Part shown: positions 130 to 21,766 of the stretch, piece by piece | Layout of the letters: each line of letters begins with the position of its first letter | Position numbering within the stretch: position 1 is the first letter of the stretch | From: Candidatus Woesearchaeota archaeon | Lineage (GTDB): Archaea; Nanobdellota; Nanobdellia; Woesearchaeales; JAGGZC01 | Direction: 5' to 3' | Length of the DNA: 49,259 nt | NCBI GenBank assembly: GCA_021161785.1 | Contig: JAGGZX010000085.1 | Coordinates: 1 to 49,259, forward strand | The notes under the pieces: generated by a model | What the model was told of the DNA's origin: nothing | Databases searched by the model: none | Seen by the model: only the letters and a program-made list of their open reading frames with translations | Position numbers and translations under genes: made by a program

Positions 130-1812
130 ATGGGTTTGTTCTCTGTTTTTAAGAAAAAGCATGGCAAGGAAAAACAAGTTCTCCCAGGGTTAGAGAGCAC
201 GATTCATGAAGAAACGCCTTTGCTTAACCAAGACTTGTTCAAGGAGAGTTCTCCAGAGTTAGAAATTCCTGAGCCTGAAGAAAAACCTTCAAAGCCAGTG
301 CAACCATTGCATGATGAGTTAGAAGAACTAAAAACTATTGAACAGCAATGGCGTGAAACATTAAAGCCTATTCAAAATCAAGAAGAAAAACCTATTGCAA
401 AGCAAGAGCAAGAAGTGACGAAACCTGAACAACAAGCATTTAAAAGTCAAGGAAAAGTTGAAGAAGAATTAAATTTAGGAGTTCCAAAAAAGCAGATAGT
501 TAAACCTCAGGAAAGTGAAGAACAGGTTCAACAAGAAATTCAAGAATTAGTAGGTTTAACAAGTAAGAAACATGTCAAGCAAGGAAAGCAAGTAAAGGTT
601 AAAACTGTTAAGAAGTCAAGCATTGCTAGGGAGAAACCTAAAATAATTAGAACAACAAAGGCAAAGCTTGCAAAGCATGAAAAACTGAGCGTTGTTTTAA
701 ACCCTGAAGTTTTGAAAGCCTTAAAACTAGTGAAGCAAGAGCAAGATCAAGCCTTGTCATTGATTAAAGACTTAAAAAACGCTTTGCAAACCTCTAGAAA
801 GCAGTTGAAAAGGAAGGGCAAGGTTAGCAAGAAAGTTTTAAACCTGAAAGAAAAAGTTTTGAAAGCTTTAAACAATGCTGATAAGGATTTGAAAGCAGTA
901 ATCACTGGTTTGTCAAAGTTGAAACTGAATGCAAAGCAATGCAAGGGTTTGAACCAGTTAAAAGCTTTGATTTCAAAAATTGCTAGGGATCAAGAGTTAA
1001 TCGTTAAGCACGTGAAGGATTATTCTAGAACATTGTTAAAGTTAGAGCTTGAAAACCTGTTCAAGGCTTATGAAGCTAGGTGGAAGCAATTGCTAGAGCG
1101 AGAAAAGAAGGATTTGCAACAAAAAACGTTGGAATTGCAAACGTTAGAGCAAGAATTAAGCCAGAAAGAGTTAAGCATTGACAAGAAGTTAAGCCTTGTA
1201 GAGGAAAAACTATCTGTTTTGAAGAGTAAAGAGAAAGCAATAAAGCATAGAGAGCAAGAATTGCAGAGAGAGCTTCAAGAACTAGCTGACAGGGAGAAAG
1301 CGCTTGAAGAGTTAGAAGTGAAAGTTGAAGCAGCTATTGAAAAGCTTGTGAAGCAAGAAGAAACAACGCGGCAGTTGTTAATGCAAGTTGAAAGCTTAGA
1401 AGCAACGAATGCTTTGGAAAAAACTGAGCAGTTGTCAGAAACAATTGCAAGTAAAACAAATTTGCAACCAGAAACTGTTAGTAAAAGCGCTAGCGCAACG
1501 CCAAGCTCTGTCATAACAATTGACACGTCAGAAGAAGAAAAGATTAACAGCTTGATACAAGCAAAAAGCAAGGCAAGCAATGCTAAACCTAAACCTGTAA
1601 AGAAAAACAAGAAGTTAACAATTCCAGACTACAAGCAAAAGCTTAAAGAACTGAAAAAACAAGTGCAGGAAGATCCAGAAACAGTTGTTGAAGAGCTGAA
1701 ACAATTGCAAGAAAGCATTGAGAAGCAAGCAATGACTAGTAAGGAGAAGCAATTGTTAAAGCAAGAACTGCACGAGCTTTACATTGAAGCAAGGTTGAAA
1801 ATGCTTGAATAA
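130..1812 (+). CDS. K/E/Q-rich coiled-coil protein, function unknown
   Basis: 560-aa ORF with no TM segment and no catalytic motif. N-terminus MGLFSVFKKK, then a Pro/Glu-rich linker, a very basic Lys-rich middle (LKALK-type repeats) and long heptad-like stretches (ELQTLEQELSQKELSIDKKLSLVEEKLSVLKSKEK). Purine-rich SD-like GGGGTGA..GGGGGA lies upstream of ATG 130. Confidence 0.6.
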   Translation: MGLFSVFKKKHGKEKQVLPGLESTIHEETPLLNQDLFKESSPELEIPEPEEKPSKPVQPLHDELEELKTIEQQWRETLKPIQNQEEKPIAKQEQEVTKPEQQAFKSQGKVEEELNLGVPKKQIVKPQESEEQVQQEIQELVGLTSKKHVKQGKQVKVKTVKKSSIAREKPKIIRTTKAKLAKHEKLSVVLNPEVLKALKLVKQEQDQALSLIKDLKNALQTSRKQLKRKGKVSKKVLNLKEKVLKALNNADKDLKAVITGLSKLKLNAKQCKGLNQLKALISKIARDQELIVKHVKDYSRTLLKLELENLFKAYEARWKQLLEREKKDLQQKTLELQTLEQELSQKELSIDKKLSLVEEKLSVLKSKEKAIKHREQELQRELQELADREKALEELEVKVEAAIEKLVKQEETTRQLLMQVESLEATNALEKTEQLSETIASKTNLQPETVSKSASATPSSVITIDTSEEEKINSLIQAKSKASNAKPKPVKKNKKLTIPDYKQKLKELKKQVQEDPETVVEELKQLQESIEKQAMTSKEKQLLKQELHELYIEARLKMLE

Positions 1813-2971: not shown

Positions 2972-3670
2972 TTATTCTTTTAAATGTTTTTCCATATACT
3001 TAGTATACTGATTTATCGTTTCATCTATTTTCTTACCTAACTCTATAAATTCGTCAGCTAAAAATTTGTTTTTAGCCTTGATAGCGTCCCTTGCAGCGAT
3101 ACGCGCTCCTAAGTGCATGTAATGAAATAGTTTTAGACGTAGATTGTACAAGTCCTCTCTAGAAGTGCCAGTACGATTCTTTAATGGATCAGGCACGTAA
3201 TCAGACCTATCCATAGTCACGAATGAGCTCTCATGAGCATAATGATTAAAGTACATAAAAGCATGTCCTAAAAGTGCAAGTGCTTCACTAAGTTTTCCTT
3301 TATGTAAAAGGTGATAGAAGCCAAATAAGGTTTTTATAGCAGAATCTTCGCCAAAACTGGCGGTACCTTTCATTATATGCTCAGGGTTGTAAAAAGTGGG
3401 GTCTACAAAAACTGTGTAGCTGCCATGTTTACTATAATAAGTAATCTCTTTAAGATCACCTATATCTTCATGGTTATCCTTAGAAATAATTCTAAAACCA
3501 TCACTAGCTTCTTTTGCTACTTTTCTAAAGTATTCTGTTAATTCTGGTCCTAGGCCAGCAGATTTATTGTCTAGTTCTCTTAATTCTTTTTCAAGTTCTT
3601 CAAGGGTTGGCAATTTTTTGTCTTCAGCCTCGGTTTCATCTGCAAGTTTTGTGTCTTTCTTATCTGACAT
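2972..3670 (-). CDS. hypothetical His-rich protein
   Basis: 232-aa ORF with SD GGAGGTGGG 4-5 nt upstream of ATG 3670. Acidic coiled N-terminus, then a helical core with His clusters (HLLHKG, GHAFMYFNHYAHE, FHYMHLG). I do not recognise a family. Confidence 0.6.
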   Translation of the reverse strand: MSDKKDTKLADETEAEDKKLPTLEELEKELRELDNKSAGLGPELTEYFRKVAKEASDGFRIISKDNHEDIGDLKEITYYSKHGSYTVFVDPTFYNPEHIMKGTASFGEDSAIKTLFGFYHLLHKGKLSEALALLGHAFMYFNHYAHESSFVTMDRSDYVPDPLKNRTGTSREDLYNLRLKLFHYMHLGARIAARDAIKAKNKFLADEFIELGKKIDETINQYTKYMEKHLKE

Positions 3671-5559: not shown

Positions 5560-6984
5560 TTATCCCTCTTCATCTCTAAGCTTTTCAACCTGCCAAGAAT
5601 CACCTTTTTTGAAAACCTTGTAAGTGCCTTTAGCATTTTCTAAAATAGTTTTGCCGTTAACCTTGACAGTTACAGGCATTCTAAAACCAGATTCAACTAT
5701 GTAAAAACCTTCATGAATCCGTATAACAGGGCCATAAACTTCAACATCATCTTCTAAACCAATAACTGCGTGGATATAGTCACCATTTTTTGAATCAATA
5801 ACTGCGTAGATATAACCGCTATCATATCCCTCAATCTCCCAGTAACTTCCTCGGTTGTAAACCACATATCGTCCATCACTGCCCTCTAAAACAAACTTGT
5901 TGTTAATAATCACTCTGGCAGGAATCTTACGATCTTCAGAAGCCTTAACTAAGTACCAATATTCCTCCTTCTCAACATAGTAACCAGTTGCAAGGATTTT
6001 TTCATTAAGATCAAGCAGCAAGTATTCGCCAGGCTTTTCAGTTTTTGCCAGCTCTATAGTTTTAGAACTAACACCATCCCAAAGCCTTATAACACCAGGA
6101 AAATCTTTAGAAGCCTGGATCACGTAAGCACCTTTATTCCGCATAGCCGACAAGCCTGTTGCAATAATTTTTTTATTAAAGTCAAACAATAACCGTTCGT
6201 TAGGATGTTTGAGTTTTATAATTTCTACAGGTTTAGAACCAAGGCCTTTCCAAAGTTTAACACTGCCAAGAATCTTACCATTACTATTCATAGAAGGCTC
6301 AACAGTGTAAACACTGCCTCCCTTCCAAACATATTCGCCGGTTACAATAATCCTTGTATCAATATCAAACAATAATTCTTCACCAGGAGTAGTGACTTTT
6401 GCAAGCTCTTCACCCTCAAAGCCATGACCCTCCCAAAGCATTACAACCCCTGGAAAATTTTTAGAAGCCTCAACCTTGTAAGCACCTTCCTTCTTTTCAG
6501 GATTCCGGCCTTTTGCAATAATTTTTTTATCAAGGTCATATAACACATACCTACCAGTTTTAAACCCATACCTAACAACTGTAGGCTTTTCCTCGTCACC
6601 AACTTTTTTCTTTTCTAAAACTTCTTCCTCGCTAACAACTTCTCTTTCAATAGCTTCCCTTGTTGCGTCTTCAACTTCTTCAAACACATATCCATGCCCT
6701 AATGAAAAATCACCCTCCAAAACATAACCATTACCCGTTTTTCTCAAAACGCCATCATAAACTTTTACACCTTTAGAACCGTTAAGAAACTCAATAAAAC
6801 CCTTAAAACTATAAACACCATCTCCTAAAGCTTTAAAATAATCATCCTCATAAACAAATTTTAAAACAAGGCCTTCTTTAGGCAAAAACAAAGTTTTAGA
6901 ACGCGAATTTTGTTTTAACGCTTTCTCAACATTTTCACGCAAATCACTGCTCTTGCTTTCGCTTTTTTCAATTTTTCCAGCCAT
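5560..6984 (-). CDS. cytoplasmic tandem-repeat (beta-rich) protein, function unknown
   Basis: 474-aa ORF with no signal peptide or TM segment. It has four clear units of about 57 aa (aa ~144-370) plus degenerate flanking units. Its ATG (6984..6982) overlaps the TAA stop of the upstream DUF763 gene by 1 nt (TAATG). Confidence 0.7.
   Translation of the reverse strand: MAGKIEKSESKSSDLRENVEKALKQNSRSKTLFLPKEGLVLKFVYEDDYFKALGDGVYSFKGFIEFLNGSKGVKVYDGVLRKTGNGYVLEGDFSLGHGYVFEEVEDATREAIEREVVSEEEVLEKKKVGDEEKPTVVRYGFKTGRYVLYDLDKKIIAKGRNPEKKEGAYKVEASKNFPGVVMLWEGHGFEGEELAKVTTPGEELLFDIDTRIIVTGEYVWKGGSVYTVEPSMNSNGKILGSVKLWKGLGSKPVEIIKLKHPNERLLFDFNKKIIATGLSAMRNKGAYVIQASKDFPGVIRLWDGVSSKTIELAKTEKPGEYLLLDLNEKILATGYYVEKEEYWYLVKASEDRKIPARVIINNKFVLEGSDGRYVVYNRGSYWEIEGYDSGYIYAVIDSKNGDYIHAVIGLEDDVEVYGPVIRIHEGFYIVESGFRMPVTVKVNGKTILENAKGTYKVFKKGDSWQVEKLRDEEG
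5875..6555 (-). repeat. 4 x ~57-aa in-frame tandem coding repeats
   Basis: Units: GRYVLYDLDKKIIAKGRNPEKKEGAYKVEASKNFPGVVMLWEG / GEELLFDIDTRIIVTGEYVWKGGSVYTVEP..VKLWKG / NERLLFDFNKKIIATGLSAMRNKGAYVIQASKDFPGVIRLWDG / GEYLLLDLNEKILATGYYVEKEEYWYLVKAS. The 16-nt string gcaataatttttttat recurs at 6161 and 6515. Confidence 0.85.
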
Positions 6985-8141
6985 TAAACAGTTTTTGTTT
7001 TTGCAAGTATAAAAAGTTTTTGCAATGCGAAAAGTTTTTCTTTATCGCCGAGCTTAGCGTTTTTAACAGCTGTCGTGAACATTTCAATTGTTGAATCATA
7101 AACAGTTTTATCAACTGGGAAAGGCCAGCCATCTTTACCGCCGTGAGCAAAGCTGTACTTTGCAGGATCTTTCCAAGAAGCTTTAACGCCAAACACTAAC
7201 TCAGAAGTTAATGCTAAAGCTCTAAACGTTTTCAAGCCAACGCCTTTAATGTTGAGTAGTTCTTCAAAACTGTTCGGCTGTAGTTCATAGCAAGTTTTTA
7301 AAGATTTCAACAATTGCTTTGATTCTGGCTTTAGATCTGTAAATGTTAAAGAGTGTTTTCTAGGCATCACGAGCGTTTTTAAATGTTTAAAACTTGCAGT
7401 GCCTGGTTTTTGAGTGAAATCTAGCAAGCATGATTGCTTGCAATGCGTTCTTAAAACTTTTAAAGGGTTCTCCCTGCACAAGTCAAGTATTGCTTTCCTA
7501 ACGTCACTGCTTTGCTTAGATGTTAAGTCTAGAGTGTTTTCAATAAAAGCTTCTGAGATGATGCCTGCTTTTTCGTGAGGTTCTAAAACAATGTTTGCTG
7601 TGTGGATCCAATGGTAACGCCTAGCAATTTTTAACTCAGGGTTCAAGCCTTGCTGGATCACAACCCATCTTGCAGAACTATCAATGATGAACGCATGATG
7701 GTATAGTGAAAAACTGTCTTGTATCAAAGCATTGTCAACTTTTGCAACAATCCTGCTCTTGTTAACAAATCTCTCAGCCTTTGGAATGTTGAATTCTTCG
7801 CAAATCTTGATTAATTCTTCAGGCGTTTTCAAAGCAGTTGGAGATTTTCCACCTGCAACTCTTATTGGTATGTCAGAACCTTGAAGTGCTTGTTTTAAAG
7901 CACCAATGGTTGTGGTTGTTAAGCCGCTTGAATGCCAGTCAAAACCTAGCAAGCAACCAAATGCTTGGAACCAGTAAGGATCTGCCAGCCTGTACACCAA
8001 TGTTTTCTCATCATAATTCAAAACTATTGCTTCAGCTATTGCTCTAGCTAGTTTTTTCATGCGGTTGAACAACCATTTAGGAGCTTTGCCTTGGTGCAAT
8101 GGCAGTATTGCTAGTCCTGAACGCTTGACATGTGCAGGCAT
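6984..8141 (-). CDS. DUF763 (COG1415) family protein
   Basis: The N-terminal block LPLHQGKAPKWLFNRMKKLARAIAEAIV...DPYWFQAFGCLLGFDWHSSGLTTT matches my recollection of the conserved DUF763 core. A C-terminal HhH-like segment reads LLNIKGVGLKTFRALALTSELVFG. 385 aa. Confidence 0.65.
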   Translation of the reverse strand: MPAHVKRSGLAILPLHQGKAPKWLFNRMKKLARAIAEAIVLNYDEKTLVYRLADPYWFQAFGCLLGFDWHSSGLTTTTIGALKQALQGSDIPIRVAGGKSPTALKTPEELIKICEEFNIPKAERFVNKSRIVAKVDNALIQDSFSLYHHAFIIDSSARWVVIQQGLNPELKIARRYHWIHTANIVLEPHEKAGIISEAFIENTLDLTSKQSSDVRKAILDLCRENPLKVLRTHCKQSCLLDFTQKPGTASFKHLKTLVMPRKHSLTFTDLKPESKQLLKSLKTCYELQPNSFEELLNIKGVGLKTFRALALTSELVFGVKASWKDPAKYSFAHGGKDGWPFPVDKTVYDSTIEMFTTAVKNAKLGDKEKLFALQKLFILAKTKTV

Positions 8142-8163
8142 TTAAGAAAAGAATTTAAAAAAC

Positions 8164-8176
8164 GTTTTTAAAAAGC
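8164..8176 (-). promoter_or_regulatory. TATA-box candidate for the DUF763/repeat-protein operon (leaderless geometry)
   Basis: The minus strand reads GCTTTTTAAAAAC, centred about 29 nt upstream of ATG 8141, with no SD. Confidence 0.45.
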
Positions 8177-8213
8177 TTACGGGTAACTGTCTAGTTTGTC
8201 TAGTGTTTAAAGC

Positions 8214-9827
8214 TTACCGCTTCTCTGCCTCGTGTTGGAATACTTCTCTCTCAATGCCTTGCATTTCCTGCTTTAACGTTTGCAACATGCTTTCATGCGC
8301 ATGGCCGCGTTTAGGCTTTTTGGGCTTGCGCGTTATGAAAACAACAACGATCAACGCTACAATAAGGCCTATCAATATCCAAAGCCATGCAATGCTTTCT
8401 TTAGACTCTTTAACAACTGGTTGTTCAGTCTTGTTTTCAGTAATGTTAAGTTGTTGCTGCGTAATGTTTGTTATTGAAGGCTTAACAACAGATTGTTCAA
8501 AAACTGCGTAAACCTCTGTTTTTTGCTCTTGGATTACAGAACTGTTAGCGCTTGACTCTGCTTTAAAAACAAGTTTTAACACGTCAGACTTGTTCACGTT
8601 TGAAAACACTGTCAAGAATGAAGGGTCTTGCTCCACTATTGTTATATCATCAACCAAAACATTGTTTTTGAAAGCTTTCACTGTTACGTTGTCAGCATTG
8701 CTAGCGAATGTTTTTGGCAGTTTAGAATACAACAGCAATGTTTTTGCAGGTAGTTCATAATCATAAGTTAATGTCTCGTTAATTGTTACAAAGCCATTGC
8801 TTTGCGAGTAATGCCTAGTGATGTCAATGTATGATTTCAAGTCATTAGCACTGTCAATCAATGCTTGCATGTCAAAGCTTTCAATTTGCTGCGTGATTGC
8901 TTGCACTAACGCCTGGTTGAATTCCAAGCTAGGACTTGCTGGAATGGTTGTGAATGTTTGCTGTGTTTCTTCAGTAATTGTTGGCGTTGTGCCTGTTCCA
9001 GTGCTTGAACCGCCAGTAGAGCCTCCATTGTTTTGATTGTCTTGATCGCTAGATTGATCAGAGCTTGAGTAACAATTCGTGTTGCAGTGTATTGTTCCAG
9101 AAGCAGAGCTTGACCCGTCATTGATTGATGAAACATGAATCGTGAATGTTGACCCGTCAACAACTTGGTTTGCTGTGCCTGTAAGCGTGAATGTTTGCGT
9201 TACAACACCATTACTGCTGATACTTCCAGAAGCTAGGCCTGGCTCTGTAACTGTTTGTGTTTCTGGACTAGCACTAACGCCTGAAGGCGTTGTTATTGAA
9301 GCAGTGACACCTTTAGCAGTTGCTTCTCCAGTGTTTTTCACAGTGAAGCTTACAACAACGCTTGAACCACCATTCAATGTAACACTGCTAGTGGTCACTG
9401 TTAAGACTGGAGGGTTCTGAGCTTCTAACGTTAAAGAATCACCGTTACAAGTAGCTGCACTGCAAGAAGGTGAAATGCTAACAGTGTAAGTTCCTGGCTG
9501 GTTGAAAATCACAGTCCATGTTGGTTTTGAACTACTAGTCACTGTTCCAACGCTTGCTTGGGATTGTAACGTGTAACTATCAGGCGTGATTTGAAAGTTC
9601 CAATTGTTAACTGTAACGCTGTCGCCGCCTGTAATGCTTAGCGTTGCCTCAATAGTTGTTGTTCTTCCAACAACTACTTGCGCAAGGTTTGAATAACCGT
9701 CCTGGCTTGCTGAAAGCGTTGCGTCCATGGACACTGCTAAAGCGTTTCCAACACTGTTAATGCTAATCACTAATGAAAAAACAATTAACAAGCAAGTTAA
9801 AAACCTGTTTTGCTTACCTGTTTTCAT
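8214..9827 (-). CDS. membrane-anchored cell-surface protein (signal peptide, CARDB-like segment, S/T linker, C-terminal TM)
   Basis: Start revised to ATG 9827 (MKTGKQNRFLTCLLIVFSLVISINSVGNALA is a signal peptide), preceded by SD GGGGGTGGA at 5 nt. The segment LTVTTSSVTLNGGSSVVVSFTVKNTGEATAKGVTASI resembles CARDB. A low-complexity linker reads SSSDQSSDQDNQNNGGSTGGSSTGTGTTPT. The C-terminal TM IAWLWILIGLIVALIVVVFIT is followed by RKPKKPKR and a short cytoplasmic tail. Confidence 0.75.
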   Translation of the reverse strand: MKTGKQNRFLTCLLIVFSLVISINSVGNALAVSMDATLSASQDGYSNLAQVVVGRTTTIEATLSITGGDSVTVNNWNFQITPDSYTLQSQASVGTVTSSSKPTWTVIFNQPGTYTVSISPSCSAATCNGDSLTLEAQNPPVLTVTTSSVTLNGGSSVVVSFTVKNTGEATAKGVTASITTPSGVSASPETQTVTEPGLASGSISSNGVVTQTFTLTGTANQVVDGSTFTIHVSSINDGSSSASGTIHCNTNCYSSSDQSSDQDNQNNGGSTGGSSTGTGTTPTITEETQQTFTTIPASPSLEFNQALVQAITQQIESFDMQALIDSANDLKSYIDITRHYSQSNGFVTINETLTYDYELPAKTLLLYSKLPKTFASNADNVTVKAFKNNVLVDDITIVEQDPSFLTVFSNVNKSDVLKLVFKAESSANSSVIQEQKTEVYAVFEQSVVKPSITNITQQQLNITENKTEQPVVKESKESIAWLWILIGLIVALIVVVFITRKPKKPKRGHAHESMLQTLKQEMQGIEREVFQHEAEKR

Positions 9828-12800
9828 GGATATCCACCCCCGCAACCAATGCAGAACCAATGCCTAACAGTTTGATACCTATCATTGCTTGTGTCATTCA
9901 CAAGCATTACTAGTTCATAATCACTAGGCTGCCAATTACTAACTGGTGTGAGTTTGACAATACAGTAACCGTTAAGGTCTGTACTGCTGCCTAGTGGGTA
10001 TGAAACATTCACTATTGATAAATTACTCACCATTCCAAAAGGCGTTGCTAATCGCAACTCAAGAACATTCACAGTTGCGTTAACAATGGGTTGCTGGTTG
10101 AAGTCTTTAACTTGTAACACAATGCTTAATGGTTGCGAAGCGTTTATGCTTGCAGGTCTAAAGCTTATCAAGTATTGCGACGCGTTGTTAAAAGCGAATA
10201 ATTGCAAGTTACTATCTCTAGAACTGTTTGAAGGCATCTGAACACCGCCAACCTCATTATGCAAGGGTAGTTGTCCTTGACCAGTGTTTAAGCCTTGCAA
10301 AGGTCCATAATACTCTGCTGAAGACTCCCAAGTGAATAATTGGTAATCATCGTCAACAACGATTCTTGTCAACGCATTGTTTTCATCAGTGAAATCGTCA
10401 AACAACACAAACCACCATTGCTGCGTTAACAAGTCATTGTTCAAATCTCCAATTGCTGATTCATTAATAACAGCAACCATTAAAGGCGTGTCATCCCTAG
10501 CGATTTCTGGCATTGCAAAGCTTGTTGAAGAGTTAACAAGTATTACAGGATCCCAAGGCGTTAAAAGGTTTTGCAGTTTGAAATCATTAACAACTGTTTC
10601 TCCAACCATTACTGGAGTGCTGCTTGAAAAGTCTCCATTGTCTGACACAAACAAAACGTTAGCCATGAGCCATGAAGGCGTTGCGTTCGTTATTAAAGAG
10701 TTATTCTTTGCTAATAGCAAAGTCTTAACACTGCCTGAAATGTTAACCCTTGTGGCAAACCATTGTTTTTCATTAAAAGACTCTACCCTTACAGGCATGT
10801 CAGCAGCAGGTCCAGGGTTTAATCCTAAAAAGAAAAAGTCTTGCGTAGCTAGTTTGAATGTTAAGTTGAAAGTTACAGCGTCACCCCACCAGCCAGTGTA
10901 GTTAACTATTAACCAATCTCCAACATGGAATGCTTGATTGTTGTCTGAAAAGTTGCAATCCCCAATGCTCACGTATAATTCAGAGTTTGAAGCGTTAGAC
11001 TGGTTGTAAATGTACAAAAAGTAAGTGTCTGGGTGTTTGTCACTTGTTATAACACTGTTGTTGAATTGCTGGTCTCCCCAAGGACTTTCATATCCAGGGC
11101 AATTGTTGCCTTGGCTTGGAATCGCGCCTGTAGTCATTGTTACATAAAAGCTTTGCTGCATTTTAGAACCATTCACGTCCATGAAAGGTTTAATACTGGT
11201 TGGCTCTATAACGATTTGTTGCGCTTGACTAAATCCTTGCAGCACGAAAGCTTGTCCAGAGTAAGTGTTAGCTATGAATGCTTTAACACTGAAGAAAGGC
11301 CATTTCCATTCTTCCAACACATTGTCACCAGACCTTATGCCTAGCATGTAATCGCCAGGGCTTGAAAACGAAGCAGTGTATTCAGCAATGCCATCTGTGC
11401 TTGTAGTTACAGTGTTGTTTTCAGGGTTTAAAGATTGTTCTTCAACAACGCCGTTGAAATTTCTAACAACTTTGAAAACTGTTATGTTAACGCCTTGCAA
11501 AGCGCTTCCTGAAGGCGTCATAGCTATTAAAGGCACTGTAACATTGTCACCGATTTTGAAAGTTCCGAAATTGCTCCAGTCACCTGCAAATAACTCGTAA
11601 AACCTTGCCTCATTTCCAGAAGCGTCAATGCTTAAAAAGTGCCAAGCGCCGTAAGTCCTGTTTTCAACACTGTCAGAAACCTTCATTAATGAGTCATCAG
11701 TAAAGTCTGCATAGCTTGAAGCATTAGATATTATGACAGCATCGTAAAGCCCTTGACTTTCAGTAGCAGCCATTAACACTAGGTAAGCGTCTTGCTCGTC
11801 ACTGTCTTGGTTTATGTCATAACCCAAGGCTTGTCCATTGCTAGGGTCTGCAGGCCCTAGGCGTGATTCTTTAACAACTTGTAAAAGTTTAAACTTTCCA
11901 TTAACGCTTAAACTCGTGTTGACTTTGAAACCAGCGTCAAGAACGTTAACACCTTCAACTTGCACAAAGCTCTCATCTTGGCCTATGTAAATGTTTTTAA
12001 CACGCCACAAGCCTTGCTCTGCATCTTCAAACACGTCATTAATTGTTTTCGCAACACTGCCTGCAAGGTTTGAAGCTGTAGTGTTAGCCCATACATGTGT
12101 TTGGTTAGCAGCTATGAATATCTTAGAAGGCTTTTGCAGTGACAGGTTATCACTCATTAAGAGTTCAGAGTAAATGTCTTGGCATTGCTGTTCAAAACAA
12201 ACCTGGTCTCCTGGATAAGTCTTAGCCCAGCCAACAAGTCCTTGATCTAGATAAGCTTCATAAACAGTGGTTGGTAAGTGTATGACTTCAATGTCTGAAT
12301 TGTTGTTATGATTTTGATAGCAAATCGTTGCTTGTCCAGCTGCTGAAAACCTGAATATGTGCGGACAGTTCTCGCATTGCAGTGTTATGTTGTCTAACTC
12401 TAGAGTAACATGTTGCATTGGAGCTCCTTCTGGCAGTGTTGCAGTGTCATTAAACGTTGACCCAATCGTTAATGGTTGTTCATTAAAAGCATGGTCTTTG
12501 TTGAAGTCAATCCATGCATGGCTAGTGTTTGTGAATATCACGTAAGAAGTGCTTTCATTATAAGTTACTCCTTCAAACTCTGTGATTCTGTCAATAAACG
12601 CTATGGACTGGTTGTCTTTTAAAAAGCTTAAAAACGTTACAGAACCGTTCGTTGTGTTTGTAGTGAATGTCACGTTCAACCAGCCTTTAGCATGCGTTGG
12701 GAAAGGTCCGTGACCAGTGATTAAAGAGCCAAGGTATATCAAGCTGTTAGTGAAGTTGCTAACACTGTACACTGCTTTTAAAACTCCTTGATCGTCATAT

Positions 12801-15800
12801 ATTTCAATGCTTGTAAAGTTTTCTGAATGGTTCAAGAGTTTTATCCAACCGTCATGCTGGCCTGGGTTGAAAGGTCCTAAGTGTAAAACGTTTTCAGAAT
12901 CATTCCAAAGCCAATGATGTCCAGAACTGCTTTTATAACCTGCAGGTATTAAAGGATTGTCAAAGTCTTTGCTTGAAGTGTTCCATTGTATTGTAAAGGT
13001 TTCAAGCCAAGCACTGCTTGGCAGTGTGTAAGCACCGATTCCAGTAATGTTTGTGGTGTATAGTTGTGGAATCTCAACTCCAGAGGTTAAAGGCATGCTC
13101 CAGTGCTCGTTTCTAGATCCACACCTGTCATTTCTCTCTAAGTATAAAACGCTATCCTTGTCAATTGTTCTTCTAACACTTACTGTGTCAATCCAAGGCA
13201 CTGCTATGACTTGATCTCTAACCATGAACCAGTAATCACTAGTGACTGATTGATTGTCCTCGTCAGTGATTGTTAATTGCAACACATACTCTCCACGTTC
13301 AATGTTGTTGTTAGCGAGTGTTAAGTTCACACTGCAATTGTTTGCTTGGCAACTGCTAACGAATTCTGAATTGTTAAACAAGTGCGTTATTTCTTCATGA
13401 CGCTTTATTGAAAACACGTGTTCTAAAGTAACGCTTGAAAGGTTGTGAGCTTGCATTGTTCCAAACTCTAAGCCTGTAACTGTCAATTGCATTGTTTCTG
13501 AAGAGCTGAACAATGGGTAGTCCCTGTCAACAGCTTCAACGCTTGCAATGTAAGGCGTTATTGAAAAGAACGCTTCTCCAACGTCTGATTGAGAGCTAGT
13601 AACAACCCTGACTAGCAACCTGTAAGTGCCTGAATTGTTTGTGAGTGTTGAAATATTGATTAACCAAGCCTTGTTTGGAGGTAGCTGCACTGGTTGGTCA
13701 CTGTCACTAAATGTTATGTTCGCTGATTGTAATTCTTGATAGCTCGGGTTTGTAAAGCTAACACTTGCAGGTGGGAAGCTCCTCATGTATTGCAATTCTG
13801 TGACAGTGACGTTGTTAATGGTTTGCAAGTTTTCAAAACCAGCCCTAGGGTCGCGAGCCATGACAATGAATTGTTTAGGATTCGTCATTGGTAATTGTCG
13901 TGACTCTGCAAAGTTTGAGCCTGACTGGATCACTGGGAATATGTCTAGTAACAAATTCCTAACTTCAAAACCAGCCCAGCCGTAACTGATAACTCCGTCA
14001 CTGTCATTAACTAAGAGTTTAACACCGTAAAAGCCAGTGTCCCAGTTATTGTTAGGTATTAATGAAATGTTTGCAACGCCGTTACTTGTGACAGCTCCAG
14101 TTGCGTTGTAATCACTGCTTGACAACTTCTTGTTAAGCATGAAGTTCCAAACTTCTAAAGGTTTTACAAAAGCGCCACTAGGTCCAGAGCCTCCTGCAAA
14201 TGCTTGCTTTGGATCAATGACGTGAACTTCTAAAACCACTGTGTCGTTAGAAGAGAAAAACCTTCCGAATTGAGAGCTAGCTGCTGGGCCGCCATACACA
14301 AGGTATTTCGTGAGTTCAAAAACGCCTTGAGCGTTTCCAAGTTGGTATGACAAGTTTCCAGAATCATTAATCAATGCTTGGAAGTCAATGCTTACTTTGA
14401 AAATGCCTTGCAAGTTAGGCGTTATGAAAGACACAACGCCAGTAGTTGAATTATATGTAAAGTTTGAGACTTGGTCAGTTACTGTAAGTCCTGATTCAAG
14501 TTCTTGAACGCTTACAAGCGTTACGTTCGTAATGTTTTCAGGCTGTATGTCTAAATCGTTAACAATGTCATGCGCTTGCAGTCTTAAAAATATTTGATCG
14601 CCAGGGCTGAGTTGGAAGAATTCCTGCCCAGACTCGTCTTGAGGTGTTAAGTCTCCAACAGCTTTCACAACAGGTATCGTTGTTGTGAAGGTGTTTGTCA
14701 ATCCATTATAGTCATAACTAGCTGTTAGCAAGTAGTTACCAGTCATTAAAGGAACGTTAAACCTTGCCATGCAGAAACCCATTGATTCAGGCGGCGGTCC
14801 TTGGTCTTGCCCGTTCGTCTGGTTCATCATTTCCTGGTATTCACTGCTGTTAACAAACTCTGCAACTGAAGAAATTGTTATGTTCAAGCTTGTCAAGTCA
14901 TATTTTACTCCAGACTTTTCAATGCTTAAAACATTGTAATTGCTACAATTCAGTGTTGCTGGGAAACCGTTTGTCAAGTCAATGCCTACAAGCACTACGA
15001 AAGCTCTCTGGCCTGGTGCAAACCCTTTAAGCTCTACTTCTCTACCAATGTATTTCGGGTTTATAGCTTCTAAAAACAAGTTTAAAGCATTAACAGTGAA
15101 GCCAGTTGTTGCTTGTTGCATTGTTTGATTGTAAGAAGCGTTAACAATGACTTTGTAAGATCCTTGTTGTGACGTGTTTGAAAACGTTGCTTTAAAAACA
15201 GTGCCGTCTCTAGTCATGTTAATCGTTGTTGAACTTCCAGACGGGGCAATGATTATAGCTCTAGGATTAACGTCAGGGTTTGTAATCACTTGTCCAGAGC
15301 TTGTTTTAAGCAAAGCTTTAACAACAACGCTACTGCCTGGTGCAAAGTTGTAAGAAGTTTCTCCAGCAGGCGTTGTTATGTCAACAATGATTTTAAAAGT
15401 TTCAACGTTTAAGTGTATAGCTGTAGCATTATTTACAGAAACAGTCCAAGTTCCAATGCTAGAAAGCGTGAAGTTTGTAAGATAGTAATACTCATTGCTA
15501 GAGCTTGTGTTGCCCTGGATTTGCGTTGAATTACTGTCAGGGCTTGTAATTGTTATTGACAAGTTATCCTCTTGCAACGCTCCAGAGCTGTTCGTAACAA
15601 TAAACGCTAGCTTTACAACCTCGTTAACGTTAAAACTTGATTTCTTCACAGGGCTTACAGCTATAAACCTAGAACCATCTGGTTGCAATCTTACTATAAA
15701 GTAATTGATAGGGAATTCTTTATTACTAATCCATGGTTGGAATTCACCAACCCTTATCTCTGTATAGTTCAACCCTTGATTTAAATCTTCAGAATTGTTA

Positions 15801-16504
15801 ATCCTTGCAAAGTTTGCATCATCATCAATGATTACTGTGTCGTAAACACCTGCAATATTTGGATCTGTGATTAAGAAATGCCATGCTTGATTGTTAATAG
15901 TTTTGTTAGCGTAATGATAAATACCGCTTTTTGAAACAAAGCCTGAAACATGAATGCCTTGACTAGCTAGGAATGAAGCGTTACCGTTAAGCATTGCTTC
16001 AACGCTTAACACTGGTTGTTGTAAAGAATTATTAACAATGAATATGTCGTAAGTGTTTACTTGCTCCACTACTTGAAAGCTTGTGTTAACTGTTTCTGAA
16101 GGATTGTTAGCATGAACGATTACAGAGTAAACGCCTAACGCATCGTTTGAAAGAATTTCATAGTTAAACGTTGCAATGCCGTTAGCGTTTAAAGAGCTTG
16201 AAGCATTGTATTTTAAAGACCCGTTAGGATAGTTTATTGTTAGGTTTATAGTCCTGTTCAGCAATACAGTGCCGTTCACGTCAAAACTTTTAACAAGTAT
16301 TGACTGGTTACTGCCTAATTGTTGCAAGTAGTCAGTGCTCACTGATAGCAAGGCATTGTTAGGGCTTGAAAGCATTGCTGTAAACACAACGCTTAAAACA
16401 AGCATTAAAACCAAACCTATCAAGGTTTTACAATCCAGTTTTTTAGAAAAATGTTTCATGCTTATTGAGGTGTTTAAAGAATTACATAAAGATTCATAAT
16501 CCAT
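9824..16504 (-). CDS. giant secreted surface protein (2226 aa), Asn/Ser/Thr-rich, multi beta-sandwich-like
   Basis: Uninterrupted 6.7-kb ORF. SD GAGGAGGGGGTGA lies 6 nt upstream of ATG 16504. There is one N-terminal hydrophobic segment (LIGLVLMLVLSVVFTAML) and no C-terminal anchor. By eye there are dozens of N-x-S/T sequons. The motif DG/NG-[IV]A-x-[FY]...G-x-Y-x-[VIL] recurs. The TGA stop overlaps the next gene's ATG (ATGA). Confidence 0.85.
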   Translation of the reverse strand: MDYESLCNSLNTSISMKHFSKKLDCKTLIGLVLMLVLSVVFTAMLSSPNNALLSVSTDYLQQLGSNQSILVKSFDVNGTVLLNRTINLTINYPNGSLKYNASSSLNANGIATFNYEILSNDALGVYSVIVHANNPSETVNTSFQVVEQVNTYDIFIVNNSLQQPVLSVEAMLNGNASFLASQGIHVSGFVSKSGIYHYANKTINNQAWHFLITDPNIAGVYDTVIIDDDANFARINNSEDLNQGLNYTEIRVGEFQPWISNKEFPINYFIVRLQPDGSRFIAVSPVKKSSFNVNEVVKLAFIVTNSSGALQEDNLSITITSPDSNSTQIQGNTSSSNEYYYLTNFTLSSIGTWTVSVNNATAIHLNVETFKIIVDITTPAGETSYNFAPGSSVVVKALLKTSSGQVITNPDVNPRAIIIAPSGSSTTINMTRDGTVFKATFSNTSQQGSYKVIVNASYNQTMQQATTGFTVNALNLFLEAINPKYIGREVELKGFAPGQRAFVVLVGIDLTNGFPATLNCSNYNVLSIEKSGVKYDLTSLNITISSVAEFVNSSEYQEMMNQTNGQDQGPPPESMGFCMARFNVPLMTGNYLLTASYDYNGLTNTFTTTIPVVKAVGDLTPQDESGQEFFQLSPGDQIFLRLQAHDIVNDLDIQPENITNVTLVSVQELESGLTVTDQVSNFTYNSTTGVVSFITPNLQGIFKVSIDFQALINDSGNLSYQLGNAQGVFELTKYLVYGGPAASSQFGRFFSSNDTVVLEVHVIDPKQAFAGGSGPSGAFVKPLEVWNFMLNKKLSSSDYNATGAVTSNGVANISLIPNNNWDTGFYGVKLLVNDSDGVISYGWAGFEVRNLLLDIFPVIQSGSNFAESRQLPMTNPKQFIVMARDPRAGFENLQTINNVTVTELQYMRSFPPASVSFTNPSYQELQSANITFSDSDQPVQLPPNKAWLINISTLTNNSGTYRLLVRVVTSSQSDVGEAFFSITPYIASVEAVDRDYPLFSSSETMQLTVTGLEFGTMQAHNLSSVTLEHVFSIKRHEEITHLFNNSEFVSSCQANNCSVNLTLANNNIERGEYVLQLTITDEDNQSVTSDYWFMVRDQVIAVPWIDTVSVRRTIDKDSVLYLERNDRCGSRNEHWSMPLTSGVEIPQLYTTNITGIGAYTLPSSAWLETFTIQWNTSSKDFDNPLIPAGYKSSSGHHWLWNDSENVLHLGPFNPGQHDGWIKLLNHSENFTSIEIYDDQGVLKAVYSVSNFTNSLIYLGSLITGHGPFPTHAKGWLNVTFTTNTTNGSVTFLSFLKDNQSIAFIDRITEFEGVTYNESTSYVIFTNTSHAWIDFNKDHAFNEQPLTIGSTFNDTATLPEGAPMQHVTLELDNITLQCENCPHIFRFSAAGQATICYQNHNNNSDIEVIHLPTTVYEAYLDQGLVGWAKTYPGDQVCFEQQCQDIYSELLMSDNLSLQKPSKIFIAANQTHVWANTTASNLAGSVAKTINDVFEDAEQGLWRVKNIYIGQDESFVQVEGVNVLDAGFKVNTSLSVNGKFKLLQVVKESRLGPADPSNGQALGYDINQDSDEQDAYLVLMAATESQGLYDAVIISNASSYADFTDDSLMKVSDSVENRTYGAWHFLSIDASGNEARFYELFAGDWSNFGTFKIGDNVTVPLIAMTPSGSALQGVNITVFKVVRNFNGVVEEQSLNPENNTVTTSTDGIAEYTASFSSPGDYMLGIRSGDNVLEEWKWPFFSVKAFIANTYSGQAFVLQGFSQAQQIVIEPTSIKPFMDVNGSKMQQSFYVTMTTGAIPSQGNNCPGYESPWGDQQFNNSVITSDKHPDTYFLYIYNQSNASNSELYVSIGDCNFSDNNQAFHVGDWLIVNYTGWWGDAVTFNLTFKLATQDFFFLGLNPGPAADMPVRVESFNEKQWFATRVNISGSVKTLLLAKNNSLITNATPSWLMANVLFVSDNGDFSSSTPVMVGETVVNDFKLQNLLTPWDPVILVNSSTSFAMPEIARDDTPLMVAVINESAIGDLNNDLLTQQWWFVLFDDFTDENNALTRIVVDDDYQLFTWESSAEYYGPLQGLNTGQGQLPLHNEVGGVQMPSNSSRDSNLQLFAFNNASQYLISFRPASINASQPLSIVLQVKDFNQQPIVNATVNVLELRLATPFGMVSNLSIVNVSYPLGSSTDLNGYCIVKLTPVSNWQPSDYELVMLVNDTSNDRYQTVRHWFCIGCGGGYP

Positions 16505-16690
16505 ACGTATTCACCCCCTCCTCTTTTTAAAATTTAAAAATAAAAACGTTATAAAATTTGTTAAAATCTCGTGTTTATAAAAAATTCGGATGGTTTACAT
16601 TTAAAAATTTTTTGCAAAAACTTGATAAATGAATCTAATTTAAAAAGTTTAAAAATATTTGCAAAGCAGTGTTGAGGTTAGAGGAAGAGC

Positions 16691-17590
16691 ATGGCTAGGT
16701 TTAAAAATAAAGTTTTGAAAAATATTAAGTTAAGACTTGTTGCTTTTGACAGTTTTTCAACGCGCAGCATGGCAACGTTTGTTGAAACAAAAAAAGCAAA
16801 AATCTTTATTGATCCAGGAATAGCTATAGCCCCGAACAGGTATGGATTGCCACCTACAAAGCAAGAGCTTTTAAAGCTTGAGCAAGGCAGGAAGCAGATC
16901 ATGAACTTGTCAAGAAGAGCAGACATTGTAACGATAAGTCATTATCATTTTGACCACCACCCTTTTTATGATGATTTACAGTTTAACAAAGCTGTTTATG
17001 AAGGAAAAATTGTTTACGCAAAGAACCCTGAAAAAAACATTAATTATTCTCAAAAGAAGCGTGCAGCAGTGTTTGAAAGCATTGCTTCAAAGCTTGCTAA
17101 AAAGCTTGAATGGTGTGACGGTGAGAGTTTTGAACATGTAAGGTTTTCTCAACCTGTCTGGCATGGCGTTGAGAAGTCAAGATTAGGCTTTGTAGTCATG
17201 ACTATTATAAATGAAAAAAATGATACGTTAATACACACGTCTGACGTTCAAGGACCAGTAGCTAAAAAGACTAGGGATTTAATCATAAAGGAAGATCCTA
17301 GCATTATCATCTTGGGCGGTCCTCCAACATACTTCTTGGGTTGGCGTTTTAGTTATAAAGATTTAAACAAAGCTTTAAACAATGTTATAAGCATCATGCA
17401 GCGAACAAGGGTTAAAACTATAATCATTGATCACCACCTTGTCAGGGATAAGCATTACAAGGAAAGGTTTTCTAAAGCTTTCGCTTTTGCAGAGCATTTA
17501 GGTGTTAACTTAATAACTGCTGCAGAGTTTAACGGCGAGGAGCCTTTACTGTTAGAAGCGCGTAGAGATGAATTGTCAAGGAAGAACTAG
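16691..17590 (+). CDS. metallo-beta-lactamase-fold hydrolase, archaeal UPF0282-like
   Basis: SHYHFDHH (H-x-H-x-D-H) metal motif. The N-terminal FDSFSTRSMATFVETKKAKIFIDPGIAIAPNRYGLPP resembles the archaeal UPF0282 family. 299 aa. Confidence 0.6.
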   Translation: MARFKNKVLKNIKLRLVAFDSFSTRSMATFVETKKAKIFIDPGIAIAPNRYGLPPTKQELLKLEQGRKQIMNLSRRADIVTISHYHFDHHPFYDDLQFNKAVYEGKIVYAKNPEKNINYSQKKRAAVFESIASKLAKKLEWCDGESFEHVRFSQPVWHGVEKSRLGFVVMTIINEKNDTLIHTSDVQGPVAKKTRDLIIKEDPSIIILGGPPTYFLGWRFSYKDLNKALNNVISIMQRTRVKTIIIDHHLVRDKHYKERFSKAFAFAEHLGVNLITAAEFNGEEPLLLEARRDELSRKN

Positions 17591-20058: not shown

Positions 20059-21111
20059 ATGGTTGTGAACTTGACAGCAAGGGTTAAAACTTTCAAACCT
20101 GTAAGCATTGACAATCAAGAATTGCTTGAAACAATTGAAGAAGCCAGTGTTGAAAGCATTGTGCAGCAATACAAGCGTTTACAAGACAAGAAAAAGTTAT
20201 TAACAAACTTTACGAAAGCTATTGAGTTGTATGCTTTGAACAAGAACGTTCTTCCAGTAAGCACTATAATTCCAGAGCAATATTTTGAGAGGGATGCTTG
20301 TAATGATTTAGAAACCAGAGTGTTCACGATTTTAGAAGCAAAGCCAAAAGCAGAGGTTAGCTATAAAGAAGTGTTCAACAATGTTAAAACATTGCTTGAA
20401 AACATTGTGTTTAAAGGATTGAAACCTGCTAGCAAGGGTGAAAGCTTTAAACATCATGGAGAAGTGTTTTTAAGCGTTGACTGGTTGTACAACACTGTAA
20501 ATGATTACTTGCAAGAAGGCAAGCAAAAAGCTTTAGAAACTGTTAGAGAAGGAAGCATTGTAAAAGTGGATCCAAACCCTAGCATTATTCTGCGGAGCTG
20601 TGTGAAAGAGTTGTTAGTGCCTTGCATTCCAGAAAAGTTAGAATCTCCAATGATTGAATTAAACAACAATTACACTGCACCATTGTATGTTTTATCAAGA
20701 GCTGGCTTGTATTATTTAAAAACTGATGAAGAATTAGTAAAGAGAAAACTTTTAGAACTAGCAACCAGTGCTACTGGTTTTGAATTAAAAGATTTGCAAA
20801 TCATGAAGGACATGGACTTGGTGAAAGTTTTAGTTCTTGAAAAAGAGTCTAAGCCTTACAAAGCATTGATTGACTATTTAACGCATGAAAAAACAGGGCT
20901 TTTAACAAGGATTATTACAAGCCAAGGCGAAGAATTGGAAAGATTAAAGTCTGAGCTAGACATTATTGAAGGCAGGACTGTTTTAAAAATTAGGAATGGC
21001 AAAGCATTCATTAGCAGTGGTTACGTGTTAAACGTTTTGAACGAGAAAGAAAGAGACTTAACACACCCTTACGAAATTGTAAGGCTAAAAGTTGAAGCGT
21101 TAAAACATTAA
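20059..21111 (+). CDS. hypothetical protein
   Basis: 350-aa ORF with well-placed promoter geometry. It looks soluble, with no motif I can assign. Confidence 0.6.
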   Translation: MVVNLTARVKTFKPVSIDNQELLETIEEASVESIVQQYKRLQDKKKLLTNFTKAIELYALNKNVLPVSTIIPEQYFERDACNDLETRVFTILEAKPKAEVSYKEVFNNVKTLLENIVFKGLKPASKGESFKHHGEVFLSVDWLYNTVNDYLQEGKQKALETVREGSIVKVDPNPSIILRSCVKELLVPCIPEKLESPMIELNNNYTAPLYVLSRAGLYYLKTDEELVKRKLLELATSATGFELKDLQIMKDMDLVKVLVLEKESKPYKALIDYLTHEKTGLLTRIITSQGEELERLKSELDIIEGRTVLKIRNGKAFISSGYVLNVLNEKERDLTHPYEIVRLKVEALKH

Positions 21112-21629: not shown

Positions 21630-21642
21630 AAAACTTTGCTGT

Positions 21643-21726
21643 GCGGGGGTGCCCGAGCGGCCAAAGGGGCAGGACTTAAGATCCTGTGGCTTAGTGCCTT
21701 CGCGGGTTCGAACCCCGTCCCCCGCA
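21643..21726 (+). tRNA. tRNA-Leu (anticodon UAA), class II long variable arm, no encoded CCA
   Basis: Acceptor stem GCGGGGG/CCCCCGC, anticodon stem CAGGA/TCCTG with loop CTTAAGA (anticodon TAA, G37), T arm GCGGG-TTCGAAC-CCCGT, discriminator A. No intron. Confidence 0.9.
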
Positions 21727-21766
21727 TTTTTTAGTTAAAACGTTAAAATTTAAATGTGTGATTGAC

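Follow-up and report, generated by a model that had tools for sequence, protein, structure and literature searches.

A giant anchorless secreted protein and a membrane-anchored partner are encoded by a conserved, probable cell-envelope operon in DPANN archaea

Two-protein surface layers (S-layers) are known so far from Crenarchaeota only, where the adjacent, bicistronic genes slaA and slaB encode an anchorless glycosylated sheath, SlaA, and a stalk with a C-terminal transmembrane anchor, SlaB (PMC5744192). For the DPANN archaea, experiments have yet to establish the identity of any S-layer or envelope protein. The best S-layer candidate there is MJ1_0160 of Nanobdella, which is anchorless, glycosylated and rich in immunoglobulin (Ig)-like folds; its lack of a C-terminal transmembrane helix implies a separate anchor (10.1101/2023.10.27.564410). 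Here we describe a pair of genes on a 49,259-nucleotide (nt) contig, JAGGZX010000085.1, from a Candidatus Woesearchaeota metagenome-assembled genome (MAG); the whole of this stretch is referred to below as the window. The pair encodes a protein of 2226 amino acids (aa), hereafter the giant, and a protein of 537 aa, hereafter the partner. We interpret the locus as a cell-envelope operon of two genes that is conserved among DPANN archaea; neither protein has a name.

Both genes, and all features of the pair given with coordinates below, are on the minus strand. The giant gene (9824..16504; NCBI locus tag J7L02_03605, annotated ‘hypothetical protein’) encodes a secreted, anchorless protein that is rich in N-x-S/T sequons and is all-beta where it was modelled (aa 1190–2226). 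Its first ATG (16504) is supported as the start because a strong Shine–Dalgarno (SD) sequence, GAGGAGGGGGTGA, read directly from the DNA at 16511..16523, lies 6 nt upstream. The partner gene (8214..9827) encodes a type-I membrane protein; its open reading frame (ORF) spans 8214..9860, and the 537 aa are counted from the ATG at 9827. At the coupling junction (9824..9841), a G-rich SD, GGGGGTGGA (9833-9841), sits within the final codons of the giant gene and is followed by an ATGA overlap (...GGGGGTGGATATCC ATG A), the partner ATG occupying 9827..9825 and the giant TGA 9826..9824. An earlier reading of the window from its sequence alone, here called the sequence-only reading, had pointed out this ATGA-coupled pair with the same two lengths and had placed an SD for the partner in the last codons of the giant; the ORFs, the overlap and the SD were all reproduced.

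A word-indexed search, profile searching included, retrieved no more than three giants and two partners, and on that basis the giant could be taken for an orphan. Orphan status was rejected once an exhaustive HMMER search with an N-terminal giant profile (aa 1–1165) had been run against 1.84 billion representatives, clustered at 50% identity: it found 153 giant-family cluster representatives at E ≤ 1e-3, 64 of them at E ≤ 1e-30. Most are 1900–2500 aa long, and fragments and split giant ORFs of ∼800–840 aa are also present. The named relatives come from Nanoarchaeota/Woesearchaeota, Aenigmarchaeota and unclassified archaeal MAGs, and all are annotated as ‘hypothetical’; a Nanohaloarchaea MAG carries a short form of 812 aa that corresponds to the N-terminal module of the giant. 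A 3225-nt contig binned as Candidatus Heimdallarchaeota (L005, JAEOTG010000284.1) codes for the first 363 aa, at the N-terminus, of a protein of the giant family (E 1e-103 with the profile); mis-binning of DPANN DNA is the most likely explanation, in preference to an Asgard homologue.

The sequence-only reading had made adjacency in related genomes a test of its proposal, and the two genes were found side by side throughout. A partner homologue lies directly downstream of the giant, on the same strand, in 13/13 loci reached via the giant (the window, L001, L002/L003, L004 and L006–L014), with a spacing of −35 to +34 nt where gene calls permit and with frequent start/stop overlaps. A metagenome scan with a six-sequence partner subset approached the locus from the other side, and a giant was immediately upstream, on the same strand, in each of the 22 loci that it reached. 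The pairing total is 35/35 loci, among which the giant-side and partner-side loci may in part be the same population. Comparison of the neighbours across loci gave no third conserved gene: the recurring extra ORFs are antisense shadows within the pair genes, DUF192 occurs near the pair in four loci only, and the flanking genes are unrelated housekeeping genes that change between loci. Over 19 pairs, the partner and giant distances correlate with r = 0.92, and the two genes have therefore been inherited together.

Two apparent exceptions to the pairing were considered and rejected. In L002 a minus-strand gene is called 3' of the giant (16482-17165), but the N-terminal part of the partner is present on the plus strand (ORF 16261-17184; six-frame hidden Markov model (HMM) search, E 3e-60), the gene caller having taken the antisense ORF; the L002/L003 partner is apparently interrupted after ∼290 residues. 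L010 had the appearance of a short giant without a partner, but the giant is there in four consecutive ORFs, which tile the giant profile at positions 11–852, 865–1218, 1136–1613 and 1629–2064, and the partner follows. Giants split into two to four consecutive same-strand ORFs were seen at L010:5001-11876, L029:933-8007, L036:912-7971, L034 and L035, with split points that coincide with module boundaries, near profile positions ∼780–860, ∼1220 and ∼1620; either frameshifts introduced in assembly or genes that are truly split could account for them. Long antisense shadow ORFs lie inside the partner and giant genes in >20 loci. At one locus (L013:835-3001), 55 nt separate the start of the giant from a preceding run of ribosomal protein genes, L18-S5-L30-L15, which in archaeal operons are usually followed by secY.

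The giant has an export signal and no anchor. Its signal peptide region (aa 1–∼50; 16355..16504) has a hydrophobic core, aa 22–49, as well as a basic n-region, and a hydropathy scan found no segment beyond this core with a mean Kyte–Doolittle hydropathy ≥1.6, hence no anchor, as the sequence-only reading had described. Short canonical signal peptides are present at the equivalent position in most relatives. Among 20 full-length members, an N-terminal hydrophobic signal segment is found in 18, the remaining two beginning inside or just past the signal, and a membrane anchor, C-terminal or elsewhere, in none. These 20 aligned members are 1918–2350 aa long and collinear from end to end, and share a conserved WF[RC][VI]G motif a few residues before the C-terminus.

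The giant of the window (∼245 kDa, isoelectric point 4.5) carries 89 sequons, compared with 34.7 ± 5.1 in shuffled sequences (z about 10); dozens had been counted earlier by eye. The same holds for the family: the 20 full-length members have 58–104 sequons where 14–44 are expected, a load of ∼2.5–4.5 times expectation, and 36 sequon positions, distributed over the full length, are kept in at least 12 of the 20 at ∼25% identity. Four close cysteine pairs, another feature of the sequence-only reading, were located at 1052/1057, 1377/1380, 1436/1441 and 2218/2221; however, two of the motifs that it named, CENC and CFEQQC, lie in a variable insertion that is absent or diverged in two relatives.

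Contrary to the earlier impression that the giant contains no named family, aa 74–145 (16070..16285) form an MG2 (macroglobulin-type beta-sandwich) domain, identified by Pfam with E 2e-11, above the curated cutoff. It is the sole above-cutoff Pfam domain in the giant and was found in 20/20 relatives scanned; scattered relatives also match Big_1, invasin D3, FlgD-Ig, filamin and CarboxypepD_reg in Pfam. Comparison with the relatives divides the protein into modules. The N-module (aa ∼50–860; 13925..16357) contains MG2, an Asp-rich ‘YD..IDDD’ domain and Ig-like sandwiches, and ends in YGWAGFEV; it is the stand-alone 812-aa protein of the Nanohaloarchaea MAG (L004), and in split giants it makes up the first ORF. 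The variable insertion with the CENC and CFEQQC pairs (aa ∼1190–1480; 12065..12937) is modelled with low confidence; it is missing in the relative P0003, and its sequence has diverged in P0002. The C-module (aa 1481–2226; 9827..12064), confidently modelled, has an all-beta body with a predicted local confidence (pLDDT) of ∼80–90; in it the Asp-rich domain occurs for a second time, together with an invariant EEWKWP motif, a terminal Ig-like domain and the C-terminal WF[RC][VI]G.

The recurring beta-sandwich signature of the sequence-only reading is real, with MG2 as its first copy, although it is weak. Self-BLAST of the giant aligned aa 87–140 with 787–840 (E 1e-3), aa 68–146 with 2127–2213 (E 9e-3) and aa 791–835 with 2161–2205 (E 3e-4), which we read as weak but significant copies of the MG2-type domain. 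In profile–profile comparison, the Asp-rich domain (∼aa 195–345) is repeated at ∼aa 1568–1720 with a probability of 93%, and the Ig-like domain that closes the N-module (∼aa 750–858) is repeated at ∼aa 2140–2226, ending in WFCIGC, with a probability of 90%. The profile–profile comparison thus shows that the giant carries an old internal duplication. The Asp-rich regions have DxNxDG-like loops in the family consensus, and these may bind calcium.

The AlphaFold2 model covers aa 1190–2226 (1037 aa, from a 20-sequence alignment) and is entirely beta, with a pLDDT of 75 and a predicted template-modelling score (pTM) of 0.65. Confidence is 80–90 from ∼aa 1460 on and low in the variable insertion (aa 1190–1460). 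The model indicates that the C-terminal half is a compact body, not beads on a string. A function taken from Foldseek was rejected for this model and for that of the partner alike, the matches being generic tandem-Ig proteins with template-modelling scores (TM-scores) of ∼0.1–0.2 (integrin legs, C3, transglutaminase and phage Ig proteins). A mirror-tree search for the interface between the two proteins gave a best partial correlation of 0.37, at giant profile positions 601–750, which is too weak to localise it, and that claim was also rejected. As leads only, a partner-binding site in the N-module is suggested by the giant that is reduced to this module and still occurs with a partner (L004), and by the place where fragmented genes are first split, and the mirror-tree search hints weakly at positions 601–750.

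In the partner, a hydropathy scan identified a signal peptide (aa 7–34) and a transmembrane helix (aa 475–503), the latter followed by RKPKKPKR and a 34-aa tail. The distal ectodomain (aa 35–250; 9078..9725) comprises, from model and profiles, two Ig-like sandwiches of the CARDB/DUF11/NPCBM_assoc type. It is followed by a low-complexity S/T/G/N/Q linker, modelled as disordered (aa 253–300; 8928..9071), and by a membrane-proximal ‘type A’ beta domain (aa 336–448; 8484..8822) that matches the corresponding domain of the Nanohaloarchaea partner (BLASTP 1e-11). The transmembrane helix, the RKPKKPKR stop-transfer and the 34-aa cytoplasmic tail, helical in the model, take up 8217..8405. This layout confirms the signal peptide, stalk, helix, stop-transfer and tail of the sequence-only reading. 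As for its CARDB-like segment, DUF11 is matched in 5/11 partners of the family (best E 1.9e-7), NPCBM_assoc in 3/11 and CARDB in 2/11, and the first sandwich is confidently modelled, but the profile matches of the window partner itself are sub-threshold (NPCBM_assoc E 0.047, PKD E 0.008). The AlphaFold2 model of the partner has a pLDDT of 53 overall: sandwich 1 (aa 30–140) is confident, sandwich 2 (aa 150–250) moderately so and the beta domain (aa 340–445) of low confidence, and the rest includes the transmembrane and cytoplasmic helices.

Partners in the family are ∼450–640 aa long. Across 11 of them, the distal sandwiches are the conserved part, and 43/47 invariant columns fall in residues 22–226 (six-sequence subset A8). 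The membrane-proximal domain comes in two unrelated versions, type A in 6/11 partners (including those of the window and the Nanohaloarchaea MAG) and a different domain in 5/11, of which four match PGF-pre-PGF (TIGR04213; E down to 1e-31), which is typically found in the surface glycoproteins of archaea. The distal Ig domains being homologous throughout while the membrane-proximal domain changes, the stalk domain has been swapped. PGF-pre-PGF/PGF-CTERM surface glycoproteins resemble the partner family, in that 4/11 partners have TIGR04213 just outside the membrane, and differ from the window partner, which has no match to TIGR04213, a type A domain at that position and an ordinary transmembrane anchor. 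A signal peptide, a C-terminal transmembrane helix and a basic tail are found in 10/10 complete partner homologues. The C-termini inspected contain no PGF motif, being plain transmembrane helices with basic tails, unlike an archaeosortase signal. The sequon count of the partners is 0–8, which is at, near or below expectation in 10/11; the exception is the L014 partner, with 8 against 3.5 expected.

It is very likely that the giant and the partner form a two-subunit surface complex, because their adjacency is invariant, their start and stop codons frequently overlap, they diverge together, and their features are complementary: both have an export signal, only the partner has an anchor, and only the giant has a glycan shield, as predicted from the sequons. 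The proposal of the sequence-only reading, that an anchorless giant works with a co-translated anchored subunit, therefore gains comparative support from the synteny, the co-divergence and the confinement of anchors to the partners, while contact between the two would follow by inference. The way in which the complex might work is suggested by SlaA/SlaB. There too the genes are adjacent and in large-then-small order, an order kept, with the ATGA overlap in the window, in all the loci above. Like SlaA, the giant is a large, anchorless, beta-sandwich-rich and, by its sequons, heavily N-glycosylated protein suited to the outside, and like SlaB (PMC5744192) the partner is smaller, with N-terminal beta-sandwiches and a single C-terminal transmembrane helix. 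The two systems nevertheless share no sequence similarity. At 2226 aa the giant is larger than SlaA (∼1400 aa), the partner is modelled, with low confidence in this region, with a disordered S/T/G linker and a beta domain where SlaB has a trimeric coiled coil, and the partner is not enriched in sequons.

The reading that we favour, with a probability of roughly 0.45, is a canopy of glycoprotein borne by a stalk that is anchored in the membrane, an arrangement that would function as SlaA/SlaB do. The giant would be exported by Sec without an anchor of its own, as a series of MG/Ig-type sandwiches and Asp-rich domains blanketed by N-glycans, and the partner would be made alongside it by translational coupling through the ATGA overlap. 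The distal Ig domains of the partner, which we propose as the giant-binding module, would hold the giant non-covalently and away from the membrane. The giant would then be the exposed, glycan-shielded outer coat, either an S-layer-type canopy or a major envelope glycoprotein, and the partner its stalk and anchor, with a flexible S/T/G linker, an exchangeable membrane-proximal domain, a transmembrane helix and a short tail. Unrelated proteins would in this way follow the same working logic as SlaA/SlaB of Sulfolobales. A two-component S-layer serving as the principal envelope of several DPANN lineages, comprising Woesearchaeota/Nanoarchaeota, Aenigmarchaeota and, in shortened form, Nanohaloarchaeota, is a bolder proposal that we hold more tentatively.

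Several points weigh against such a coat. Neither protein falls into a characterised S-layer family: no match to SlaA/SlaB or to solved S-layer proteins was obtained with profiles against all PDB sequences at E ≤ 10 or among the 50 Foldseek matches listed per model. The partner model has no long coiled-coil stalk like that of SlaB, showing between the sandwiches and the beta domain only the disordered linker and two short helices (aa 305–326), in a region of low confidence (pLDDT <50). MSTP-like (DUF1608) S-layer proteins have been predicted for Nanoarchaeota in a preprint (10.1101/2024.05.28.596244), and these organisms may therefore already possess another S-layer; the giant, the partner and their relatives gave no Pfam match to MSTP/DUF1608 tile domains. 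The modest number of giant clusters at 50% identity, only 153, suggests a subset of DPANN lineages and not all of them. A 245-kDa giant would exceed any known S-layer subunit. Codon usage gives no sign of the high expression that would go with an abundant coat, the scores being alike (0.65–0.78) for the giant, the partner, the thermosome, ribosomal protein genes and other genes; this test is uninformative, because the genome has no codon bias even in its ribosomal protein genes. Finally, the interface, the lattice and the abundance of such a coat are all inferred.

A different use for the same complex would be attachment to a host or partner cell, the giant being an adhesin or contact organelle that is carried on the anchored partner, at low copy or at contact sites, and binds a host archaeon or bacterium. 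Most DPANN archaea are ectosymbionts, and the proteins usually considered as candidates for attachment are large Ig-rich ones at the surface (PMC10266531; 10.1101/2023.10.27.564410). The family has sandwiches of the Ig/MG, Big_1, invasin-D3 and filamin types, is apparently restricted to a subset of DPANN lineages, and includes one relative with an N-terminal gingipain-type Peptidase_C25 that could act on a host surface. The SPEARE-type giants of nanohaloarchaea are likewise large, Ig-rich and secreted and are implicated in cell–cell interaction; they differ in being 5000–9400 aa long, with a transmembrane segment of their own, a cytoplasmic VirB4/TraG-like ATPase and adjacent secretion ATPases (PMC10266531), none of which holds for the present pair. 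In the giant, Pfam found no ATPase domain, and the sole hydrophobic segment is the signal peptide. The tight conservation of length and domain order, and the sequon positions retained at ∼25% identity, are unlike fast-diversifying, repeat-expanding adhesins; the neighbours are housekeeping genes and not variable islands; the body is predicted to be compact; and Pfam scans recognised no lectin, carbohydrate-binding module or other binding domain in the giant or its relatives. The attachment purpose suggested by the sequence-only reading received no direct support, the collinearity, surroundings and fold suiting a structural coat at least equally. We prefer a coat to a diversifying adhesin because of the conserved size and domain order, the glycosylation positions, the compact predicted body, the housekeeping surroundings and the modular stalk, and regard attachment as the purpose of the complex as unlikely. 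The two roles are nonetheless compatible, because the coat of an ectosymbiont is its contact surface too.

The macroglobulin-type domains raise a further possibility, that the giant is a thioester-less relative of alpha-2-macroglobulin (A2M) which traps or blocks foreign proteases at the surface while tethered by the partner. With the A2M/C3 superfamily (ECAM/YfhM, MagD, A2ML1) it shares MG-type sandwiches, a size like that of long bacterial A2Ms and a location at the cell envelope; ECAM/YfhM is a lipoprotein seated on the membrane, and MagD/MagB of Pseudomonas provide a known case in which a partner anchored in the membrane stabilises a protein of the A2M type. MG2 is universal among the members scanned, the profile matches A2ML1 (E 2e-5) and ECAM (E 6e-3), both via a single MG-type domain, and C3, C5, A2ML1 and ECAM lead the Foldseek PDB matches of the giant model (E ∼3e-7). 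The TM-scores of these matches are, however, only ∼0.08, with no global superposition, and generic multi-Ig phage proteins reach the same E-values, so that the resemblance is one of domain type and not of architecture. A thioester protein identity, which CFEQQC together with MG2 might suggest, was rejected. CFEQQC (aa 1436–1441), the only CxEQ motif, is CYQPPC in the 56%-identical P0002 and is missing with the insertion in P0003; the all-beta model of aa 1190–2226 contains no alpha/alpha-toroid thioester domain; and Pfam A2M, bait-region and TED (thioester domain) profiles found no match in the giant, in 20 relatives or in distant relatives. Membership of the A2M family is largely refuted, and we give a protective device of this kind only a slim chance. 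It is also improbable, if slightly less so, that the two proteins are co-transcribed and physically separate, with the giant released or bound to the envelope in some other way, for instance through its WF.VG end or its glycans. The motif conserved at the C-terminus of the giant could itself serve in recognition, and adjacency by itself is no proof of binding; yet the pair stays together, across DPANN lineages under several phylum-level names, while all other neighbours change, and the frequent start/stop overlaps, the co-divergence and the complementary anchor and glycan shield speak against such independence.

The canopy-and-stalk coat can also be set beside the candidate envelope proteins of other DPANN archaea. 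MJ1_0160, NEQ300 of Nanoarchaeum and Micr_00292 of Micrarchaeum share with the giant a signal peptide, multiple Ig-like folds and many N-glycosylation sites (10.1101/2023.10.27.564410). By their descriptions they are set apart from it, being ∼1000 aa long and having proposed anchors that are not encoded by adjacent genes. A relationship to the giant family is possible, because the 812-aa stand-alone form exists.

Other surface functions were observed at some of the related loci. The giant of L014:4001-11920 (P0044) has a gingipain-type Peptidase_C25 with its propeptide fused N-terminal to the N-module, and at L009 Peptidase_C25 and F5/8-type-C domains are found in a protein of their own, encoded at 14972-17026, which is 3 kb downstream from the pair. 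On domain content, these cases may link the scaffold to surface proteolysis. About 1.1 kb downstream of the Nanohaloarchaea pair, L004:7471-9447 (+) encodes another surface protein, of 658 aa. Besides its signal peptide and C-terminal transmembrane helix, this protein has Cys-rich modules and tandem repeats that are nearly identical to one another (…TITGTGEPNATINYTITD…).

In the window, the pair is preceded by an AT-rich intergenic region with several TATA-like tracts (16524..16690), a putative promoter of the two-gene operon. The spacer 3' of the partner stop (8142..8213), where the conserved module ends, has oligo-T tracts, a possible archaeal terminator, and TATA-like tracts before the DUF763 gene. 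The pair takes up 16.8% of the window, the one sixth estimated earlier, and its surroundings are indeed housekeeping: thermosome, RtcA, DUF763, PfkB kinase, class-I tRNA synthetase, XPD-type helicase, SecY and a ribosomal protein operon. The DUF763 gene (6984-8141, −) adjoins the pair in the window and in its closest relative (L001), not in more distant loci; its stop overlaps the start region of the next ORF, which lies beyond it at 5560-6984 (−), encodes 474 aa and has no Pfam match. Four further ORFs, of 560, 232, 299 and 350 aa (130-1812 (+), 2972-3670 (−), 16691-17590 (+) and 20059-21111 (+), respectively), encode uncharacterised cytoplasmic proteins that show neither a Pfam match at E ≤ 1e-3 nor a hydrophobic segment. 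The search for RNA families in the window gave a single tRNA-Leu (anticodon TAA) at 21642-21727 (+), shortly before the gene for the class-I tRNA synthetase (21758-24733), and nothing else.

With this pair, a family without a name is defined across several DPANN lineages by a clean two-gene signature that lends itself to searching and annotation: a secreted MG2 giant of ∼2000 aa, then an Ig-domain protein of ∼450–640 aa with a C-terminal transmembrane anchor. A pair of HMMs would improve annotation, because gene callers mishandle the locus through antisense shadow ORFs and split giants. If the complex is a contact apparatus, it would still be the best-conserved surface candidate in these genomes. 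If it is a coat, it would be a target for the fitting of cryo-electron tomography maps and for antibody or fluorescent labelling of uncultured Woesearchaeota, and would give insight into how symbionts present themselves to hosts and viruses. Should the pair prove to be the principal envelope, it would be the first two-protein S-layer outside Crenarchaeota, built with macroglobulin-type domains and independent of SlaA/SlaB, and, since the coat is what meets the host, it would be a primary determinant of host contact in these symbionts.

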